Below are positions 782 to 10,612 of a stretch of 43,786 nt of DNA, piece after piece (position 1 is the stretch's first letter; each line of letters opens with the position of its first letter). This stretch comes from an uncultured Clostridia bacterium. Lineage in GTDB: Bacteria > Bacillota > Clostridia > Lachnospirales > Lachnospiraceae. Under the pieces are notes generated by a model. The model did no database searches, was not told the origin of the DNA, and was given only the letters and a program-made list of their open reading frames with translations. The position numbers were made by a program, and so were the translations under genes. The stretch is from the NCBI GenBank assembly GCA_947089095.1, contig CAMUJB010000007.1, forward strand, positions 1 to 43,786, written 5' to 3'.

Positions 782-1897
782 CTAAGGCTGCATCAGCTCC
801 GCAACCCGATTCATCATTTCACAATATTCCTCATAAGATTTATATTTTAAAAACAAATCAATATTTTCCTGAACCAACATAGATCTTTGAAAATTTGCAA
901 TATCTCCTCTAATACAATTATATCGATACGTATAATCTAATTTTATCATCCGCAGCGTTTCTGCATAAGATAATCCGGTAGGAAAATATAATCCCTTTGT
1001 TGATTTTCCTTTAAAACAAGAGTCGTGATCAAATAACGGATAAAGCGAATGAGTTTTTCCATTCCAAACCAATGCACCAAAATTGTCCCGATTTCGATCG
1101 GTATTCAATGTAATATAATCCAATATATGCATTTTTAAAAATCCAATTGGATCAATCTGCATATATTTTAAATAAGGCAGACTGTTATAAGTCATAAGAT
1201 TGGTATCATAAAAAGACATCATATCCCGATAGGGAACCAATTCCAAGCTCTCTGATGTCTTGATCTGGCATACCGAACAATCCCTTTCATTTACTCTAGA
1301 ATAAATATATCGACTGCATGGAATATTTAAAAACTTTGCCAAATAATAAACAATAATTTCTGATAAAATTTCCTTAATTTTCTCATATTTTATCAATACA
1401 ATTCCCTTTGATGTGCGAACAAAGCACTTTGCCCGAATCCCTTTACTGGTCAATTCTCCTGTATAAATCTGATCTCCTATTGCATCATTTTGATTAATAT
1501 CCTGCAGATTCCCTGTCAATGCAACATCTGCTATCTTTAATGAGAATTCATTTTTATAGAGATTGACTTTTTCCCATGTCTCTTCCGAATATTTGGAACA
1601 GATCCAGTAATTATCCCGGAAACTTAATGCTCTGCTTAAGATACAGATATTGATATCGCTTTGATCATCAATTCCGCAAGAAACTAAAATTTCCTTACAA
1701 TATTCTCGATTTGTCATTAACATCCGATCCGAACAAAAACTTACAATCATCCCATAATCTCTGCGATTTTTTATAGACAGCGGTATTAATTCACAGTTAA
1801 AAACTTGAACTGTCTTTCTTTTTGTATCAAATTGAAGTACGATTTCATCCTTATATTTTAAAAAATATTCGCTTTCTAAAAATTCTCTGTCTCCCAT
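782..1897 (-). CDS. HipA/CtkA-like kinase-fold protein with a non-canonical catalytic loop; putative toxin-like kinase or pseudokinase
   Basis: Segment MHILDYITLNTDRNRDNFGALV has the HipA_C catalytic-loop pattern (hydrophobic-x-N-T-D-x-H-x-K-N-F-S), but with H replaced by N and K replaced by D. A later LFDHDSCF resembles the Mg-binding Asp region. RBS aaaggtgg sits 5 nt before the ATG. Confidence 0.45.
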   Translation of the reverse strand: MGDREFLESEYFLKYKDEIVLQFDTKRKTVQVFNCELIPLSIKNRRDYGMIVSFCSDRMLMTNREYCKEILVSCGIDDQSDINICILSRALSFRDNYWICSKYSEETWEKVNLYKNEFSLKIADVALTGNLQDINQNDAIGDQIYTGELTSKGIRAKCFVRTSKGIVLIKYEKIKEILSEIIVYYLAKFLNIPCSRYIYSRVNERDCSVCQIKTSESLELVPYRDMMSFYDTNLMTYNSLPYLKYMQIDPIGFLKMHILDYITLNTDRNRDNFGALVWNGKTHSLYPLFDHDSCFKGKSTKGLYFPTGLSYAETLRMIKLDYTYRYNCIRGDIANFQRSMLVQENIDLFLKYKSYEEYCEMMNRVAELMQP

Positions 1898-1926
1898 AAG
1901 CCACCTTTTACTGAATCCTATCTATC

Positions 1927-2175
1927 TTACTTGTTTCCTTGAATCCTATGTCTTCTCTTATACTGCTCCCAATTTCTTATCGCATCCTCTTCTGTCTCAC
2001 CCCCAAATTCTTCATTAATTAAGGTAATCATATAATCCAACATATCCTCCTTAATTCGTGTGGCATTACACTGATTTAAACGTTCTGCCTGTCTGCGTAT
2101 AAATTCTTCATCTGGTAGAGTGTCATCCTCTAAATCGGCTAGAGCATCACACATTTCCAAATCCTGAAATCTCAT
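1927..2175 (-). CDS. Small acidic hypothetical protein (82 aa), co-operonic and upstream of the kinase-like gene
   Basis: Intact ORF rich in D/E with no HTH. A 29-nt gap separates it from the downstream kinase-like gene on the same strand. Confidence 0.4.
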   Translation of the reverse strand: MRFQDLEMCDALADLEDDTLPDEEFIRRQAERLNQCNATRIKEDMLDYMITLINEEFGGETEEDAIRNWEQYKRRHRIQGNK

Positions 2176-2247
2176 CCAATCACCCCATTTTCTATCTATC
2201 TCAATAGCTATCGCCCTTTCTAATATTCCTTTATACTTTTAATCTGA

Positions 2248-2316
2248 AAAAAGGTGCCCTGCCAGCCAATGACAGTATACGATATACTATCCGGTTGGGT
2301 GCACCTTTTTTTTGAT
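2248..2316. terminator. Bidirectional rho-independent terminator separating the NUDIX operon from the kinase-like operon
   Basis: aaaaaggtgccctgccagcc...ggttgggtgcaccttttttttga: a GC stem flanked by an A-run on one side and a T-run on the other. Confidence 0.5.
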
Positions 2317-2329
2317 CTTTTTGTTTTTC

Positions 2330-2842
2330 CTACTCTCTAAAGTCAGAAACAGCAGAACAGTCCTTCTGATCTAATATTTCTTCCTGTGTTGGATAACAAA
2401 TCGCTTCTGTAAGTTTTTCTCCCATATACCGTAATTTTAAAGAAAAATAATTCTGTCTCTCCTCTAAAAGCCGGAAAAATATCCGATCTCCCTCCCAGAG
2501 ATTTAACTGAAATACGTCTTTTTTATTTACCCATGCAAGGGTTCCTTCTGTACATTCTATAGGGGTTCCTTTCCACCGATCTGCAGTAAAAAGATGCATA
2601 TATTCCGTTTCTTGCCCATCCTGAACAAATGTGACCAATCCTCGGTAAAAATACCGGGTTAATGTATAACCGGTTTCTTCCTTTACTTCCCGCAGCATAC
2701 ATTCCTCTGGTGTCTCACCTTCCTGAAATTTTCCTCCAATTCCAATCCATTTCCCCTGATTATTGTCATTGGTCTTTTTATTTCGATACATCATCAGATA
2801 GGTTTCACCTTGCTCTAAATAACATAAAGTTGACAAGTGCAT
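2330..2842 (-). CDS. NUDIX hydrolase (MutT-like)
   Basis: Canonical Nudix box GGKFQEGETPEECMLREVKEETG (G-x5-E-x7-REUxEExGU). Its start codon overlaps the stop of the upstream giant ORF (ATG 15 nt after TAA). Confidence 0.85.
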   Translation of the reverse strand: MHLSTLCYLEQGETYLMMYRNKKTNDNNQGKWIGIGGKFQEGETPEECMLREVKEETGYTLTRYFYRGLVTFVQDGQETEYMHLFTADRWKGTPIECTEGTLAWVNKKDVFQLNLWEGDRIFFRLLEERQNYFSLKLRYMGEKLTEAICYPTQEEILDQKDCSAVSDFRE

Positions 2843-2859
2843 ATCGTTTCTTTCCTTTT

Positions 2860-5800
2860 TTAATTAAAATAACATTTTTTAATTTCACTGGTTGAAATTT
2901 CTTCTAATCCCTGAGCAACTACATACTCTATCATATCAGGCTCTACCGTCCGAATAAATAATAGTGCATCTTCCTTAACATCAATATGAATCTCTTTATA
3001 AAGCACATTTTCAATTGGCATCTGTTCCATCTTAGAATCTGCTATAGGATTGTTGGTATAATAGATACGAACCACTTCTCTTGTAGCCCCTTGGAACGGA
3101 ACCCACTTTTTATACTCAATTTCAGCCGGTGAAAACTTACAGTCAAAATAATGTCTGTGATCTCTTCCTAAATAATAGTGGAAACGGGACTGCTGCAATG
3201 CATCGGTTTCATAATTTTTTTCAATTTTAATTGAACTTCCCGGACGGCTCTTTAACAGTCCATATGCTACTCCTGTTTTTGCATTTGGAACATATTCTTC
3301 TGTATTTTCACTCTCTCCCGTCAGCGGATCAATCAATTCAAAATATGCATTTCCTATTTCATCTGCCATTCTCTTAGATTTGCTGTAATATTCTTCAATC
3401 TTCTTTTGGAACAATTCTTTTACAAATATAGATTTACTGGAATTTCCTGCTAAAAAGATATAAATCTTATTCTCTTCTTTTTTTGTTTTCTCTTTAGATA
3501 AAAACATTTTAATTAAGCATTGGAAGAAACTATCAATTCCTTTTTGAATCCGTTTTTTAATTAATTCTACTAAATCCTGACTGGAAAATTCTAAAATACA
3601 CTGCGGCACAGGTTCTCCATTCATATTGTATAGAGAAACAACAATTCCTTCTTTATCAACTTCATTTTGTGCAGATTCATTGTCTAATTGGTATTTCTTT
3701 CTCCAACCCTGCTCCTGATGCCATAACGGACGCAACTCTTCTTTTAAAATCGACATATTTCTTCTTGCAATCTGAGAATTGATTAATAATGTCTCACTTC
3801 CTGCAAAACTATTCTCTCCAACTGGCAAAGTAAAGGTAATCTTCTTCTCCCGAAATACCTCTAAGTTTTTCTGATATACCTGATAAGCCAGTAATTCCAA
3901 TATATTTTCGCCGCCCAGTGTAACATCCGAATCTGCCCCAAAACATTCTAACACATAGTCATAGGCTTCTCTTTCGTACTCTTCTTCTGTTGCACCTCTG
4001 CAGATTCCAAAATCAAAGTCAGTTGTTCCTCCTCCAAAATCAAAAATTCCATACATAAACTGTTCTGTCTCATCCTTTGGCTCTAGATGACTTTGTTCCA
4101 ACGCTGTTACTGCATATGCTGCCGGCTCGCTGATTCCTAATTTTACCTGGAACCGTTCCATACATTCGGGATCACTCAGTATACTAGAAGGCAGAGATTT
4201 TTTAATTCCTTCATAAAAACTATTGGCTATAAAATCTCTTACATCTTTTGAATATCCAACCGGAAATGTCATTAGATAATTTAAGTAAATACCGTTCCGC
4301 ATATTGTTAATATATAACCCAATATAGTAAGCATACAATTCAATCGGATTGACAATTCCCTCTGTCATCTCAATATGCTCCCCTAAGTAATATTCTTCTT
4401 TTTGCTTATCCTTAATCAGTACACTTCCTTTTTCCCGATTTGCCCACTGTTTTAATTCATTAAAATAGGCATAAAAATCATCCGGCTTACAATTTCGAAA
4501 ATCTTCATAGGCATCATAAGAAACAAAAATATCATTGCAGGAAGTATGCGGTCTGCCAGCTTCTTTTTGATAATCTTCCATAAATTTTTTTACATTTGTA
4601 AATTCAATAATAGTTGGATTTTCGAAATCTTCTTCTTTTACTTCATCACTTAAATTTCCTGTTCCAATTCGAATCGGCACAATCCGGTTCGTAGCATCCT
4701 GACGAACAACGACTGTACTTTTCGTTCCAAAATCAATGCCAACTACACCATTTTTAATATCTAATTTCGGATCTCTTGCAATTAAATTCTCATAACGGAT
4801 TGTCTCACTTTCTGAAAAATTATTCTCTTTTCTGTCTTCCGTCCATTCTAAAGTTTCGGTACCCGATTCTTCACTCTCTTTTCTTGCTTCAAATAATTCC
4901 CAATGTCCTCTGATAATATCAAATAAAATATCTTTATCATATGGTTCTAAACGGCATCTATTTTTATCACAATCTAATAATGTCTGTATTTTTTCCATTT
5001 CTTCGTCTACTTCCCCTTCTCCTTGTATCGCATCTGTTTCTTTTATTTTTTCAATTTCTTCTATATTTTCATTTTCGGCTTTTTCGGTTTCTTTTCGCTC
5101 TTCTGTTTCTTCTGTCTTTTTATTTTCCCTACTTATTATTTTTGTCTCTTCTGCTTTTTCCGTTTTTACCTTCTCTATTTTTTGAATATTTTCTGGTTGC
5201 TGCTGTTCTGCTGCCTTTTCTGGAATTGATTTTAACTGCTTTTGTTGCTCATTAGAACTTTGGTCATTAGAACTTCTTTGCATCTCCTTCTGTTCTGGTA
5301 TTTTATTTTGTAATTCCAACTCCTGCTGATTTTTTAAGTTTTTTGATTCTGCTTTAGAAATTTCTAATTCTATAGATATTTCTGGTTCCGACATCTTAGA
5401 AATTTCAGACATTTCTGATTTATTAACAGATAATAATATCTCTGATTCTTCTAAATTCTCTTGAATTTCTGGCTCTAATACTTCTAATTCTATAGAAATT
5501 GGTTCTTCCTCTACCTCTTCTGCAGCTTCTGATTCTATAGAAATCGGCTCTTCTACTATCTCTTCTGCTTCAAAAGAGATTGGTTCTTCCTCCACCTCTT
5601 CTGCTGCTTCTGATTCTATAGAAATTGGCTCTTCTATTATCTCTTCTGCTTCAAAAGAAATCGGTTCTTCCTCTATCTCTTCTACAGCTTCTGGTTCTAT
5701 AGAAATTGGCTTTTCTACTATCTCTTCTGCTTCAAAAGAAATCGGTTCTTCCTCCACCTCTTCTGCTGCTTCTGATTCTATAGAAATCGGCTCTTCTATT

Positions 5801-7215
5801 ATCTCTTCTGCTTCAAAAGAAATCGGTTCTTCCTCTACCTCTTCTGCTGCTTCTAATTCTATAGAAATCGGCTCTTCTACTATCTCTTCTGCTTCAAAAG
5901 AGATTGGTTCTTCCTCCACCTCTTCTGCTGCTTCTGATTCTATAGAAATCGGCTCTTCTATTATCTCTTCTGCTTCAAAAGAAATTGGTTCTTCCTCTAT
6001 CTCTTCTGCAACTTCTGATTCTATAGAAATCGGCTCTTCTATTATCTCTTCTGCTTCAAAAGAAATTGGTTCTTCCTCTATCTCTTCTGCAACTTCTGAT
6101 TCTATAGAAATCGGCTCTTCTATTATCTCTTCTGCTTCAAAAGAAATTGGTTCTTCCTCTACCTCTTCTGCAATTTCTGGTTCTATAGAAATTGGCTCTT
6201 CCTCTATCTCTTCTGCAGCTTCTGGTTCTATAGAAATCGGTTCTTCCTCTACCTCTTCTGCAACTTCTGATTCTATAGAAATTGGTTCTTCCTCTATCTC
6301 TTCTGCAACTTCTGATTCTATAGAAATTGGCTCTTCCTCTATCTCTTCTGCTGCTTCTGGTTCTATAGAAATCGGTTTTTCCTCTACCTCTTCTGCTGCT
6401 TCTGATTCTATAGAAATCGGCTCTTCTACTATCTCTTCTGCAGGTGCTTGATATAATGAAGATAATTTCGATGTTCTAACTGTTTCTTCCTTCATTAATT
6501 GTTCCGTCTCTTCTAGAACAAGTTCTTTCTTATCCTCCTTTTCCACTATTTCATCCATTTTATTTCTTTGTAAAATAAAATCTTCAAAATCAATATTATG
6601 AAAATTATTACTTAAAAATTGCATCATTTTCCAACTGTCTTTTGAGGTATACAATGCAGATGGCGTTAGACCCATCTTTGCCCAAAGATAGATATCATAA
6701 TTCCAGGATTCTATATCTTTTCTTTTATATTTTTCTTCTACACGATAGATCTGCAAAATTGTTCCCTCTTCATTCTTCTGAAGACGGCGTATTTTTCTAC
6801 GTTCCTCATCATAAACCATGCCATTTTTTAAAAAAATCTTTTTCTTTCGGCATCTTTCTCCAAGTCCGGCAGCTCCAAATGTCTTTGGCATATTAGAAAT
6901 AGGCAGATAAGGAATAATCTGTTCTGCTTCCTCTTCTTTTAAATAATCCCAGACAATCCGCCCAGAATTTATCAAAATCGGACTTCTTTCCGGTCTTTTG
7001 TCTATCCGATAACTATTCTCTAGATACTTTTGTTCCATCGGAATAAAAATGTCTGTAGCCCTATGCTGATACCAGGTTCCTTCCAAACTGACTAATCGAA
7101 TAAATCCATTTACCCAATTACTTGGCGATTCAAAGATCGTGCGAATGTTGGCTTCCATATGGCAGCATTTTTCCCATATCTCTTTTTTCTCCAAGATACT
7201 CCATTTTTTCTCCAT
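2860..7215 (-). CDS. Giant 1451-aa multidomain protein: unknown N-terminal domain, acidic tandem-repeat linker, K/E/Q-rich low-complexity segment, Hsp70/actin-fold ATPase domain, and an unknown C-terminal domain
   Basis: Three Hsp70 NBD motifs are recognisable: VVGIDFGTKSTVV (phosphate-1, compare DnaK GIDLGTTNS), FDFGGGTTDFDFGI (phosphate-2, compare DLGGGTFD), and IFLAGNSSKSIFVKELF (adenosine motif, compare LVGGSTRIP). SD gaggtag precedes the ATG, and the stop TAG of the upstream gene lies inside this SD. Confidence 0.75.
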   Translation of the reverse strand: MEKKWSILEKKEIWEKCCHMEANIRTIFESPSNWVNGFIRLVSLEGTWYQHRATDIFIPMEQKYLENSYRIDKRPERSPILINSGRIVWDYLKEEEAEQIIPYLPISNMPKTFGAAGLGERCRKKKIFLKNGMVYDEERRKIRRLQKNEEGTILQIYRVEEKYKRKDIESWNYDIYLWAKMGLTPSALYTSKDSWKMMQFLSNNFHNIDFEDFILQRNKMDEIVEKEDKKELVLEETEQLMKEETVRTSKLSSLYQAPAEEIVEEPISIESEAAEEVEEKPISIEPEAAEEIEEEPISIESEVAEEIEEEPISIESEVAEEVEEEPISIEPEAAEEIEEEPISIEPEIAEEVEEEPISFEAEEIIEEPISIESEVAEEIEEEPISFEAEEIIEEPISIESEVAEEIEEEPISFEAEEIIEEPISIESEAAEEVEEEPISFEAEEIVEEPISIELEAAEEVEEEPISFEAEEIIEEPISIESEAAEEVEEEPISFEAEEIVEKPISIEPEAVEEIEEEPISFEAEEIIEEPISIESEAAEEVEEEPISFEAEEIVEEPISIESEAAEEVEEEPISIELEVLEPEIQENLEESEILLSVNKSEMSEISKMSEPEISIELEISKAESKNLKNQQELELQNKIPEQKEMQRSSNDQSSNEQQKQLKSIPEKAAEQQQPENIQKIEKVKTEKAEETKIISRENKKTEETEERKETEKAENENIEEIEKIKETDAIQGEGEVDEEMEKIQTLLDCDKNRCRLEPYDKDILFDIIRGHWELFEARKESEESGTETLEWTEDRKENNFSESETIRYENLIARDPKLDIKNGVVGIDFGTKSTVVVRQDATNRIVPIRIGTGNLSDEVKEEDFENPTIIEFTNVKKFMEDYQKEAGRPHTSCNDIFVSYDAYEDFRNCKPDDFYAYFNELKQWANREKGSVLIKDKQKEEYYLGEHIEMTEGIVNPIELYAYYIGLYINNMRNGIYLNYLMTFPVGYSKDVRDFIANSFYEGIKKSLPSSILSDPECMERFQVKLGISEPAAYAVTALEQSHLEPKDETEQFMYGIFDFGGGTTDFDFGICRGATEEEYEREAYDYVLECFGADSDVTLGGENILELLAYQVYQKNLEVFREKKITFTLPVGENSFAGSETLLINSQIARRNMSILKEELRPLWHQEQGWRKKYQLDNESAQNEVDKEGIVVSLYNMNGEPVPQCILEFSSQDLVELIKKRIQKGIDSFFQCLIKMFLSKEKTKKEENKIYIFLAGNSSKSIFVKELFQKKIEEYYSKSKRMADEIGNAYFELIDPLTGESENTEEYVPNAKTGVAYGLLKSRPGSSIKIEKNYETDALQQSRFHYYLGRDHRHYFDCKFSPAEIEYKKWVPFQGATREVVRIYYTNNPIADSKMEQMPIENVLYKEIHIDVKEDALLFIRTVEPDMIEYVVAQGLEEISTSEIKKCYFN
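5470..6450 (-). repeat. Near-perfect 84-nt (45 + 39 nt) tandem repeats inside the giant ORF, encoding EEPISIESE(A/V)AEE(V/I)EE and EEPISFEAEEI(I/V)E units about 20 times
   Basis: The nucleotide repeats ctcttctgc(t/a)gcttctgattctatagaaat(c/t)ggctcttc are almost identical copy to copy. The protein segment is extremely acidic and disordered-looking. Confidence 0.85.
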
Positions 7216-7220
7216 TTTTT

Positions 7221-8006
7221 CTACCTCACAATCACAATCGGCTTTATCACATCATCTTGTATGCTATATCCATTTAAAAGGACTTCCTGCACCACCCCAT
7301 TTACAATACTCTCCGAAGTTTTGATATATTGCCTCGAATCAAACTCATTACCAATCAGTACCTCTATAATCTCATAACGTTCTTTTCTTATATTGGTAAT
7401 ATTATAAACATTGATACATAAATCAAAGAAATTTGCCAATACTCGAATATTTTCCGTTTTTCTATCTGAATTCATAATTTCATCTTTAATAAAATTCCAT
7501 AATTGCTTAATTCCATTTTTATCTTTTCCTAAAGCAATAAAAGATTTAATATCCCATGAACCACATAAATTTTTTAAATAAGACTTTTGGCTTTTCTCCA
7601 ATTTCGAAATCCCCTGCCAAATCTCACTAATCTCCTCTAATGGTTCAAACTCCTTTTTCTGTTCCTGAAGCTGTTGATACAATTCTTCCTTCGAATGTTG
7701 AATCTCTCTCTTTTCCTTTTCCAAAACCACATTTTCTTTTTCTAATGCAGCATTTTCCTTTTCCAAGACAGCCTTTTCTTTTTCCAATGTCCGATAGTTT
7801 TCATGTAATCTTTCACACTCCAGATGTGCCTCTTCCAACTGATGATAAAGCAGATCCTTTTCTTTTTCCAATGCTTCTATCCTACGTTGAAATTCCCTCT
7901 CCTGTTCCTGATCTTTTTTTACAATTTTCTTAATATCCTCCTGAACCTCCCCATCTTTTAACAACTCACGCAAAATACGTTTTACACTAATTTGTATCTC
8001 ATCCAT
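7221..8006 (-). CDS. Coiled-coil protein (261 aa) with a C-terminal globular domain; first gene of the giant-ATPase operon
   Basis: Residues 30-130 are heptad-like and E/K/L-rich (LEKEKAVLEKENAALEKENVVLEKEKREI). The stop codon lies 5 nt from the next ATG, consistent with translational coupling. Confidence 0.5.
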   Translation of the reverse strand: MDEIQISVKRILRELLKDGEVQEDIKKIVKKDQEQEREFQRRIEALEKEKDLLYHQLEEAHLECERLHENYRTLEKEKAVLEKENAALEKENVVLEKEKREIQHSKEELYQQLQEQKKEFEPLEEISEIWQGISKLEKSQKSYLKNLCGSWDIKSFIALGKDKNGIKQLWNFIKDEIMNSDRKTENIRVLANFFDLCINVYNITNIRKERYEIIEVLIGNEFDSRQYIKTSESIVNGVVQEVLLNGYSIQDDVIKPIVIVR

Positions 8007-8373
8007 TTTCCAATCTCCTATTTTTTATGCTCCGTCACTTCCCACCTAAAATAAATTTTTATATTCCTAAGCGAAATCATAACATCTCAATTATTCTATC
8101 ACACAATTTCCAAATATACAACATAAGAAAAAACATTCTGAGAAGAAAACACATGGTTCTTAATTTCATACCAATTTTTAGTCAATCCATACCAATTTTA
8201 ACCTATCAAGGAAGTAGCAGAGCAGATTCCGAATTTCCTTTGACCAAATAATCAATCTTAAAAAACTCTGAAAGGCAAATTTTACAGTCAAATTTCGATA
8301 AAATAATAGATGACTTTTAACAGAATGTCCTGTAGAATAAAATAAAAATTCAAAATCTAAGGAGTAAAAAATA

Positions 8374-9001: not shown

Positions 9002-10612
9002 TTACCTTTCGTTACTTACAGGTATTTCCTCTGTTTCCCCAACAGCCCGTTCTAACAGTTCTGTTATTTCTTCCTCCGTCATATAAGAAACACCTGTAAT
9101 CTCTCCTTCTGCATTTCGAATAATTTTAATGCTTGCCGTTCCTTTTGAATTGATATCAAGCATATAAAACGAACTGTCAGGACGCTGATCCTTAATAATG
9201 TTGATTAATTCACCCTGATAATAATAAGATTTCCCATTTTTTTCAATACCATAAGCTGCATACTCCTCAATAAGTGCGGTATCGTCCCAATCCCAGTCTT
9301 TATCGTCCCAGTCAAACCCCCAATCTTCATCATTCCAATCCCCATCGTCCCAATCAAACCCCCAATCTTCATCATTCCAATCCTTATCGTCCCAATCAAA
9401 CCCCCAATCTTTATTATTCCAATTCCCATCCTCCCAGCCAAAATTCCAATTTTTATTATTTCCATTCCAGCCAATATCCAAATTTTTATCAGAAACATAG
9501 CTATCCATTTCATGTCTTTTCTGTTCTGATATTAAAATTTCGCTTTTTTCAGCAGAATCGGAATGGTTTGCTGAAGCAGTTGGATAAACACCAACAAAAG
9601 CTGCTCCAAAGAGTAAACACAGTGTAGATATACCTGTAAAAATCCGAACCGTCTTTGTTTTTTTCTTAAAATTCATAATTGCACCTAACCTTTCTTTTAA
9701 TTGTTTCGCTCCCTCAGTCAAAGTTACCGATGTGAACGATCCTTTACGGAGATGATCGATCTTTAAAAATAAAAGCAAGACATCTCCATACTCACGTCTT
9801 ACGCTGTCATCAAGCATGGCTATAACTGCTTCATCACATGACAATTCACACGCTTTATTTACTTCTTTTTCAAGCAAATAAACAAACGGATTAAACCAAT
9901 GAATACAAATTACAAGCTGTATCAGCCATTTATAAAACATATCCCGCCGTTTGTAATGATTTAATTCATGCATAAAAATATAAGATAACTCTTTCTCCTT
10001 CCATTCTCTAACAGGCAAAATAATACTAGGACGAAAGAAACCAATCATAATGGGCGATGAAATCAAAGAATTACTATATAATTCTACTCTCGTTTTCATA
10101 CTCTGTTTTTCTTCCAAATCAGACAGCAAATTCAATATTTTTACATCTGATATCTCTGTATTGCCAACTTTCATATATTGAATAAAGCCTTGATAAATTG
10201 TCACTTTGCGGACAAAAAGAACTACTGCAAATACTGACCAAATAAAAAAGAGACACGCATATCTATCAAATAACTTCTGTTTAGCAGCATTATTTACAAT
10301 TATATTTTCATTTTCTAGTACCTGTGGTCGTATTGGTTCGTTGTTATCTGTATTTACTACAGCAGACAGCTTAGAACCTGCAGAATTCTCATTTGTTATA
10401 ACAACTGTACGAAACAGTTGAAACAAGCTTCCTACATTTATTGTATCAGGTGTAAAAGGAAGCAAAAACCGCAGCACAACAATGATCCAAATATAATACT
10501 GCCAACGCCTGCTGAACTTATTTTTATATAATGGTTTGAATCCTAAAATAAGCAATAGCAACAGTGTACCGGAAATAGACAGTGACAATACTATTTTCAT
10601 AAATTCATCCAT
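9002..10612 (-). CDS. BlaR1/MecR1-family M56 peptidase-type membrane sensor with a W/D-rich tandem-repeat region
   Basis: N-terminal TM helices, then the M56 zinc motif FMHELNHYKRRD (HExxH). Four repeats of DWGFDWDD(K/G)DWNDE follow. No BlaI-like repressor gene is adjacent. Confidence 0.75.
   Translation of the reverse strand: MDEFMKIVLSLSISGTLLLLLILGFKPLYKNKFSRRWQYYIWIIVVLRFLLPFTPDTINVGSLFQLFRTVVITNENSAGSKLSAVVNTDNNEPIRPQVLENENIIVNNAAKQKLFDRYACLFFIWSVFAVVLFVRKVTIYQGFIQYMKVGNTEISDVKILNLLSDLEEKQSMKTRVELYSNSLISSPIMIGFFRPSIILPVREWKEKELSYIFMHELNHYKRRDMFYKWLIQLVICIHWFNPFVYLLEKEVNKACELSCDEAVIAMLDDSVRREYGDVLLLFLKIDHLRKGSFTSVTLTEGAKQLKERLGAIMNFKKKTKTVRIFTGISTLCLLFGAAFVGVYPTASANHSDSAEKSEILISEQKRHEMDSYVSDKNLDIGWNGNNKNWNFGWEDGNWNNKDWGFDWDDKDWNDEDWGFDWDDGDWNDEDWGFDWDDKDWDWDDTALIEEYAAYGIEKNGKSYYYQGELINIIKDQRPDSSFYMLDINSKGTASIKIIRNAEGEITGVSYMTEEEITELLERAVGETEEIPVSNER
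9270..9480 (-). repeat. 42-nt coding tandem repeats (DWGFDWDDxDWNDE units) inside the BlaR1-like gene
   Basis: Repeated gtcccaatcaaaccccc(a)atcttcatcattccaatcc units can be read directly in the sequence. Confidence 0.65.

Follow-up and report, generated by a model that had tools for sequence, protein, structure and literature searches.

What do three tightly packed genes of a gut bacterium encode, when two of their products escape the standard profile libraries? The genes lie on the minus strand of a 43,786-nucleotide (nt) stretch of DNA, here called the window (NCBI GenBank assembly GCA_947089095.1, contig CAMUJB010000007.1, positions 1 to 43,786), from an uncultured Clostridia bacterium of the Lachnospiraceae. 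In order of transcription they specify: (i) a 261-residue protein rich in coiled coil, (ii) a 1451-residue protein, hereafter the large protein, and (iii) a 170-residue NUDIX hydrolase. A first-pass annotation, made from the letters of the DNA, had regarded them as an undescribed three-gene operon. The locus is, very probably, better read as an Hsp70-type ATPase that works with a dedicated GrpE-like exchange factor, with the NUDIX gene outside this unit. What is new here is an unannotated, widespread Hsp70-like/GrpE-like pair; the Hsp70 and GrpE kinds themselves are already known.

The predicted Hsp70-type core and its GrpE-like partner

Conventional searches do not place the large protein. 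Pfam, NCBIfam and PADLOC return no match for the whole 1451 residues, for residues 1-256 or for residues 738-1451, the curated Pfam/NCBIfam Hsp70 threshold being reached neither by the whole protein nor by the latter fragment, and a phmmer search of the core against PDB sequences gives only noise. The fold is more informative. An AlphaFold2 model of the core, with 20 homologs as input (predicted local distance difference test, pLDDT, 74; predicted template modelling score, pTM, 0.69), retrieves Hsp70s as all of its top 50 Foldseek matches in the PDB (DnaK, BiP, Hsc70, Hsp110, Ssb and Ssz; E = 5.9e-18 to 8.7e-13). Structures that include both the nucleotide-binding domain (NBD) and the substrate-binding domain (SBD) take higher ranks than NBD-only structures, with alignments of ~670 against ~530 columns. 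Identity between the large protein and Hsp70s is ~11-14%. By predicted structure, the C-terminal half of the large protein is a true Hsp70-type unit, in keeping with the Hsp70-fold ATPase that the first-pass annotation had placed there.

The Hsp70 signature set, composed of DxGTT (phosphate-1), EPxAA, DxGGGTxD (phosphate-2), LGGED and GGxxR/K (adenosine), is matched in the core by GIDFGTKS, ISEPAAYA, FDFGGGTTD, TLGGEN and LAGNSSKS; the motifs reported initially (GIDFGTKST, FDFGGGTTD and LAGNSSKS) are all present. Alignment by hhalign, which spans core residues 278-373 and DnaK residues 156-237, sets ISEPAAYA, FDFGGGTTD and TLGGEN on the DnaK segments INEPTAAA (E171), YDLGGGTFD (D194, T199 and D201) and HLGGED. 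The hhalign comparisons with single DnaK or GrpE sequences align the right regions at low probability (24% and 7.7%) and served for motif mapping only. Conserved residues of the NBD include D828, K922, E1030, D1059, T1064/T1065 and D1066, and the catalytic positions are invariant in the alignment of 20 homologs. Judged from these intact catalytic residues, the active site is apparently competent.

The ASKHA fold is common to actin and Hsp70, and phosphate-binding motifs alone do not separate the two; on such motifs, a filament protein of the actin, ParM or MreB type with a coiled-coil adaptor could be envisaged. This reading is exceedingly improbable, and the fold ranking together with the Hsp70 signatures gives grounds to reject it: none of the top 50 fold matches is actin-like, EPxAA and LGGE(D/N) align with their Hsp70 counterparts, the C-terminal domain stands in the position of the SBD and the partner is predicted to have a GrpE fold.

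The C-terminal beta-rich domain is the probable counterpart of the Hsp70 substrate-binding beta-domain, as the extent of the structural alignment suggests. No helical lid is evident after the NBD in the model of the core. A J-domain (DnaJ) Pfam match is likewise missing among the operon and neighbourhood genes scanned, and a housekeeping DnaJ could act as the J-domain co-chaperone of the large protein. The first-pass annotation had further denied that the large protein is an Hsp70 of the chaperone type, a claim that holds in part: it is not DnaK, HscA or HscC and has no Pfam HSP70 match, but its fold aligns across NBD and SBD, its signatures are Hsp70-specific and its partner is of the GrpE type.

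The C-terminal 714 residues have >4,600 homologs in a protein collection clustered at 90%, the named ones being mostly from Lachnospiraceae and all labelled 'hypothetical protein'. A profile search of 1.84 billion representatives (clustered at 50% identity) returns 976 matches at E <= 1e-3 and 645 at E <= 1e-30. As there are just 976 matches, all of them long proteins of the large-protein type, the family is discrete and does not merge into the far larger canonical Hsp70 family. The best match to Pfam HSP70 (PF00012) among the homologs, from locus L071 of Neobacillus dielmonensis, scores 17.6 bits against a cut-off of 20.6 (E = 0.0012).

The 261-residue partner likely has the GrpE fold. Its model (pLDDT 90) consists of a long helix (residues 19-120), a helical bundle (residues 122-204) and a small C-terminal beta-domain (residues 211-260), the same order of parts as in GrpE. 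The top 10 Foldseek matches of the model are all GrpE proteins, from E. coli, Geobacillus, Thermus and human mitochondria (E = 8.8e-5 to 2.6e-2; probability 0.66-1.00), after which the list jumps to E > 1. The first-pass annotation had noted a coiled-coil protein resembling GrpE in layout, a likeness that structure prediction confirms. At the level of sequence the signal is fainter. Pfam GrpE (PF01025) is the sole recurring family other than coiled coils, found for 8 of 45 full-length members of the partner family and 5 of 45 C-terminal domains (best E = 3.1e-6), whereas the partner in the window falls below the GrpE threshold (12.2 bits against a cut-off of 25.8; E = 0.15) and under every other threshold of Pfam and NCBIfam. 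In PADLOC it gives coiled-coil noise only. A profile of the full-length partner family searched against the PDB is drowned by coiled-coil matches, and a profile of the C-terminal domain of the family does not retrieve GrpE from the PDB. The hhalign comparison, with a GrpE sequence verified against 1DKG, sets the C-terminus of the partner on GrpE residues 148-193 at the low probability given above. Neither protein reaches a Pfam, NCBIfam or PADLOC threshold, and literature searches yielded no description of the Hsp70-like/GrpE-like family; the view of the first-pass annotation that the system is undescribed is borne out.

The conserved two-gene unit and the NUDIX gene

Synteny was compared in 80 loci of species-representative genomes and 9 metagenome loci, by use of open reading frame (ORF) maps and purpose-built family hidden Markov models (HMMs). 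The GrpE-like gene is directly upstream of the Hsp70-like gene, on the same strand, in 49 of the 69 loci with enough upstream DNA and is nearby in 53. Hosts of the pair include Lachnospiraceae and other Clostridia, Bacillaceae, Heliorestis, Epulopiscium, Campylobacterota, Zetaproteobacteria and Gammaproteobacteria, and the Hsp70-like proteins of these hosts are ~40% identical to that of the window across ~700 residues. This adjacency, kept in several phyla, upholds the combination of large protein and coiled-coil gene; the conserved unit is a two-gene Hsp70-like/GrpE-like module, that is, two genes rather than three.

In a collection that represents each of 185,579 species by one genome, 228 stretches with the module were confirmed, and the genes that flank it differ even among close relatives. 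The variable flanks, the restriction to 228 stretches and the spread across phyla point to horizontal transfer of the pair. A clade of Lachnospiraceae (loci L001, L022-L029, L035 and L037; ~58% identity to the core of the window) has no adjoining GrpE-like gene, in which case the partner may be encoded elsewhere or none may be used. Tandem or duplicated Hsp70-like genes are seen within one locus in L070, L075, L079, L085 and L105, and the metagenome-assembled genomes (MAGs) JAWXUS01, JAILNN01 and JALWSU01 have two separate loci apiece.

The NUDIX protein matches Pfam NUDIX (PF00293; E = 8.9e-18; 65 bits against a cut-off of 21.1) and has a perfect Nudix box (GX5EX7REUXEEXGU), GKFQEGETPEECMLREVKEETGY, at residue 37. 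Its ATG follows the TAA of the large gene by 17 nt, with AAGGAAAG ahead of the ATG, no terminator between the two genes and a strong one after the NUDIX gene; in the window genome, the NUDIX gene and the upstream pair probably share a transcript. The same arrangement recurs in loci L013 and L014, and the NUDIX protein matches the PADLOC single-gene candidate PDC-S07 (E = 2.5e-13). These observations favour a functional three-gene system, as proposed in the first-pass annotation, in which the NUDIX protein would serve as an effector or as a processor of a nucleotide signal. Such a system is very unlikely. Only the window (with its twin, L010), L013 and L014 have a NUDIX gene directly after the large one; in L006-L009, L011, L012 and L017-L020, at 75-82% identity and with L019 belonging to the cultured Acetatifactor aquisgranensis DSM 110981, its place is taken by an unrelated gene that is often on the opposite strand, and none is directly downstream in any of the distant loci examined. 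A NUDIX gene is somewhere nearby in 6 of 75 loci, 3 of these 6 representing one lineage, a frequency that, by rough judgement, looks near chance for so common a family. The PDC-S07 match, in turn, is to a generic NUDIX domain.

Because the NUDIX gene is missing downstream in most relatives and in all distant loci, it lies outside the conserved unit. The trio is not syntenic in most relatives, an outcome that the first-pass annotation itself had named as telling against its proposal. The NUDIX gene is instead a lineage-specific passenger lodged between two unrelated modules, the second being a pair of genes for 82- and 371-residue proteins beyond the terminator. Membership of the NUDIX gene in that downstream module was also considered and rejected, as the 82-/371-residue pair occurs without NUDIX in metagenomes.

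Layout of the locus and the regions ahead of the core

The three minus-strand ORFs, their tight junctions and the terminator hairpin are found in the sequence as the first-pass annotation had described them (Table 1). The 261-residue gene ends in ...GTGAGGTAG and the ATG of the large gene comes 5 nt further on, a spacing by which the stop of the former adjoins the GAGG Shine-Dalgarno sequence of the latter. The hairpin at the end of the transcription unit has a folding energy of -35.1 kcal/mol (z = -2.8 against shuffles), a GC-rich stem, a 5' A-run and a 3' T-run; it is not reported by a simple consensus terminator scan. The intergenic region ahead of the 261-residue gene is the probable promoter region of the operon. 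It includes a single weak -35/-10 match (8331-8303, minus strand), and shuffled sequence scores as well.

Table 1. Coordinates of the genes, protein regions and flanking elements of the locus (positions in the window; aa, residues of the encoded protein)
Feature	Position	Strand	Basis
GrpE-like partner gene, 261 aa	7221-8006	minus	ORF call
Hsp70-like ATPase gene, multi-domain, 1451 aa	2860-7215	minus	ORF call
NUDIX hydrolase gene, 170 aa	2330-2842	minus	ORF call, Pfam NUDIX, Nudix box
N-terminal domain, aa 1-240, apparently fast-evolving and family-specific	6496-7215	minus	Pfam-negative; close relatives only
Acidic tandem-repeat linker, aa 258-585	5461-6444	minus	Tandem Repeats Finder (TRF), composition
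E/K/Q/S-rich low-complexity spacer, aa 586-740	4996-5460	minus	Composition; unconserved in alignment
Conserved pre-NBD motif, aa ~743-775, LLDCDKxRCRLExY...GHWELFE	4891-4989	minus	Alignment A1
Hsp70-type nucleotide-binding domain (predicted), aa ~822-1327	3235-4752	minus	Foldseek, hhalign, invariant columns
C-terminal beta-rich domain (predicted), aa ~1329-1451	2863-3231	minus	All-beta in model, pLDDT 75-92
Bidirectional intrinsic-terminator-like hairpin, end of transcription unit	~2247-2316	.	RNA fold
Upstream intergenic region, AT-rich, 367 nt, common with divergent GNAT gene	8007-8373	minus	

Approximately 820 residues precede the NBD in the large protein and form an adaptor domain, a disordered linker and a conserved motif. 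The N-terminal domain (residues 1-240) has no Pfam match, and a sequence search across representatives of the family reached close relatives only; loose motifs in the N-terminal region are common to many family members. The same position is taken by WD40 propellers in the family members P0147, P0161 and P0185 and by a PP2C-type domain (PP2C_2) in P0077. Such comparisons mark the N-terminal domain as a putative family-specific adaptor that is fast-evolving and sometimes swapped for WD40 or PP2C.

The acidic tandem repeat that had been claimed for the large protein is present. TRF identifies an 81-bp unit in 10.9 copies at 5494-6397, with a 90/135-bp periodicity that reaches 6442; as protein, the repeat comprises 23 units of 12 or 15 residues (EEPISIESEAAEEVE / EEPISFEAEEII) with 44% Glu. 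Relatives, including close ones, have unrelated low-complexity linkers of other lengths at this position. Judged from sequence comparison, the acidic repeat is one lineage's form of a hypervariable disordered linker and is no feature of the family. The window is ~99% identical to the mouse-gut Lachnospiraceae MAG MGBC128194 (locus L010), in which a 100-N scaffold gap (L010 4434-4533) falls inside the repeat (~5.5-6.4 kb of the window); the window assembly reads through this region. Given the gap, the exact number of copies depends on one assembly, although the repeat itself is real.

The pre-NBD motif has the invariant columns L9, L10, D13, K14, R16, C17, Y22, G33, H34 and W35 in alignment A1. 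It includes two conserved cysteine residues, falls in a low-confidence portion of the model and does not obviously correspond to any part of Hsp70.

Beyond the terminator, the genes for the 82- and 371-residue proteins (782-2175, minus strand) form a conserved pair of their own that is found on metagenome contigs at 43-55% identity without a NUDIX or Hsp70-like gene. In PADLOC the 371-residue protein matches the candidate PDC-M03A (E = 3e-10), and it has a weak match to PI3/PI4-kinase; it is a kinase-fold protein and possibly HipA-like. On the other side of the operon, a BlaR1/M56-like membrane protein (9002-10612, minus strand) has, towards its C-terminus, an unusual repeat rich in W, D and N, NWNFGWEDGNWNNKDWGFDWDDKDWNDEDWGFDWDD....

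Accessory modules, known systems and possible roles

Among the 75 loci with downstream DNA, 13 have a HerA-type extension, 6 have a dynamin-type extension and 50 have neither; in the window, genes of these extensions are absent throughout. The HerA-type extension consists of: (i) a HerA/FtsK-type P-loop ATPase of ~1,000-1,080 residues, which matches Pfam DUF87, TraG P-loop and TrwB and PADLOC mad8 (2.7e-22) and HerA (1e-18), (ii) a membrane protein of ~230 residues, the hydrophobic N-terminus of which is glycine-zipper-like, and (iii) a protein of ~145-190 residues. In three of the HerA/FtsK-like ATPases (L071 11065-14088, L051 11059-14151 and L074 7951-10971), a ~130-residue insert rich in S/T/N/G lies between an N-terminal domain without assignment and the P-loop domain. 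The dynamin-type extension consists of a ~170-residue protein and a dynamin-like GTPase of ~880 residues with a weak PADLOC LeoBC match (E = 2.4e-9). The small ~170-residue proteins of the dynamin-type operons have no detectable kinship to those of the HerA-type operons. In Acinetobacter piscicola the operon, at locus L105, lies on the mobilizable plasmid pYH12207-1 and encodes, in order, a WYL regulator, a HerA-like ATPase, two glycine-zipper proteins, a 310-residue protein, the GrpE-like protein, two Hsp70-like proteins, a HEPN protein with an intact R-x4-H motif and a dynamin fragment; an integrase, then HipBA and IS982, lie beyond it. In some other loci NYN + OST-HTH, vWA-TerF, WD40 or PAAR-like DUF4280 genes adjoin the module. 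One such case is Ureibacillus xyleni, where a PAAR-like DUF4280 gene (L039 6996-7331; E = 1.3e-13) and a gene for a Pfam-negative protein of 1084 residues are directly upstream of the GrpE-like gene.

The recurrent operons with a HerA/FtsK/VirB4-like ATPase and a glycine-zipper-like membrane protein, together with the PAAR-like DUF4280 of Ureibacillus, could speak for a motor of protein or DNA translocation. The Hsp70-like protein would then be a pulling ratchet, comparable to mitochondrial Hsp70 and Mge1 at the import channel, coupled to a HerA/FtsK-like pump and the glycine-zipper protein for export, secretion or DNA transfer. This is quite unlikely, as most loci, including the window, are without such a partner, secretion substrates, relaxase or pilus genes are not linked, and the dynamin-type variant is ill-suited to a translocon.

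The pair shares with DnaK-GrpE the adjacency of the genes, the exchange-factor-like gene being first, an NBD fold with the catalytic Asp, Lys, Glu and Thr kept, a predicted beta-domain behind the NBD and a partner with a long helix, a helical bundle, a small beta-domain and a similar C-terminal motif. It differs from DnaK-GrpE in falling below the Pfam HSP70 and GrpE thresholds, in the ~820 residues ahead of the NBD, in having no evident lid and no linked DnaJ gene, in its patchy phyletic spread and in being additional to the housekeeping dnaK. HscA, HscC and YegD are extra bacterial Hsp70-family ATPases with narrow tasks and are recognised by standard Hsp70 profiles. The large protein, too, is an extra Hsp70-family ATPase, but unlike HscA, HscC and YegD it is missed by such profiles. 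To our knowledge, these three ATPases have neither a dedicated GrpE-like gene nor a long N-terminal extension.

Two groups of predicted conflict systems include components of related kinds. CnuD/CnuCD of Type III CoCoNuT are very divergent Hsp70-like NBD/SBD units in predicted conflict operons, some CoCoNuT operons also encoding FtsK/HerA-family ATPases and glycine-zipper proteins (PMC11090510). CoCoNuTs have a McrB-type GTPase, McrC homologs and HEPN nucleases, with degenerate Walker-like motifs in CnuD (PMC11090510). By contrast, the pair described here has intact ATPase motifs, a GrpE-like partner and no linked McrBC. Neither a McrB-like NxD GTPase nor McrC (DUF2357) is found in the window operon, in 85 gene maps or in the commonest flank families; as no McrB or McrC genes are linked, the pair is not a CoCoNuT. 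The GAP1-N2 GTPase-centric predicted conflict systems of Firmicutes and Actinobacteria include HSP70, GrpE and a GTPase (Kaur et al. 2020; PMC7159879). They are defined by ZnR-GTPases, GAP1 and FNIII-repeat proteins and often have DnaJ fusions (PMC7159879). ZnR-GTPase, GAP1 and FNIII-repeat proteins are not found beside the module in the window or in annotated relatives, with libraries that have no GAP1 profile, and the GTPase partner found in relatives is, unlike that of the GAP1-N2 systems, dynamin-like. With no ZnR-GTPase, GAP1 or FNIII protein found beside it, the pair is probably not a GAP1-N2 GTPase system. The models for HerA of Sir2-HerA, mad8 of MADS and LeoBC of Eleos (LeoA/LeoBC) are matched by accessory partners in relatives, through generic P-loop or GTPase domains only; the defining Sir2, DUF4297, methylase and LeoA are absent, and the window is without any HerA- or dynamin-type gene.

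By analogy with DnaK-GrpE, ATP hydrolysis would lock the Hsp70-like protein onto a protein target, and a dimer of the GrpE-like protein would then open the nucleotide cleft such that ADP leaves and the cycle resets. Client binding by the large protein and nucleotide exchange by the partner are proposed on this same analogy, the action of the partner on the NBD having indirect support from the kept adjacency of the two genes. The N-terminal adaptor, exchangeable for WD40 or PP2C in relatives, would determine the site or the target of the engine. Elsewhere, the pair shares operons with membrane-directed NTPase modules, and the window would hold the minimal form.

The task of this engine can be proposed only tentatively. 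The favoured reading, of less than even probability, gives the pair the part of sensing or regulating engine in a mobile conflict system (directed against phages or other mobile genetic elements) or in an envelope-stress system. Hints toward a conflict or mobile role include the patchy spread across phyla, the tandem or multiple copies, the fast-evolving, exchangeable N-terminus on a conserved engine and the partners of HerA, dynamin, WYL, HEPN and NYN type, and there are precedents for Hsp70 or Hsp70-like components in predicted conflict systems (PMC7159879; PMC11090510). A more specific form is somewhat unlikely: the pair would lie, as the engine, at the core of a family of mobile conflict systems not yet described, in which an N-terminal sensor detects an invader protein and licenses HerA/FtsK-like and glycine-zipper, dynamin-like or HEPN/NYN effectors.

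Several observations weigh against a conflict role. The window neighbours of the operon are mostly ordinary genes, as are most of 148 flanking genes of other loci, ~10 of which match defence models, some generic; a defence-island test on these 148 genes finds no clear enrichment, such that the accessory or defence-island setting supposed by the first-pass annotation is weak. PADLOC-DB 2.0.0 has no match for the large protein, most loci have the bare pair, only two copies of the pair are on plasmids and none was found in phage genomes. With flanking genes that are for the most part ordinary, a role in conflict is plausible rather than established. The main rival is a specialised housekeeping Hsp70/GrpE pair, comparable to HscA/HscB or HscC, that would serve one client or site (e.g., the membrane or the spore envelope) and have no part in conflict. 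For such a pair speak the Hsp70 and GrpE folds with intact catalytic motifs, the chromosomal position among ordinary genes in the window and most other loci, the few defence-model matches in the flanks, the absence from phage genomes and the many hosts that are spore-forming Bacillota. It is nonetheless somewhat unlikely, as the distribution is very patchy (228 stretches among 185,579 species) yet reaches several phyla at ~40% identity, flanks are unconserved even in close relatives, copies are tandem or multiple, the N-terminal domain is fast-evolving and swapped, one plasmid copy is accompanied by WYL, HEPN and an integrase, and some hosts do not sporulate.

Hsp70 and GrpE are among the best-studied proteins, yet this family, with hosts that range from gut Lachnospiraceae to marine Proteobacteria, is unseen by Pfam, NCBIfam and PADLOC, and both of its proteins merit family models in public databases. 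In the predicted architecture, an Hsp70/exchange-factor engine has acquired an N-terminal adaptor that can be swapped, along with links to partners of the HerA, dynamin and nuclease types. If the pair is the core of a conflict-system family, it would parallel the STAND or MoxR-vWA switches with Hsp70 as its basis, and a role in defence would add sensing by a chaperone to the principles of bacterial immunity. If the role is one of housekeeping, abundant gut bacteria would possess a novel, dedicated chaperone system.

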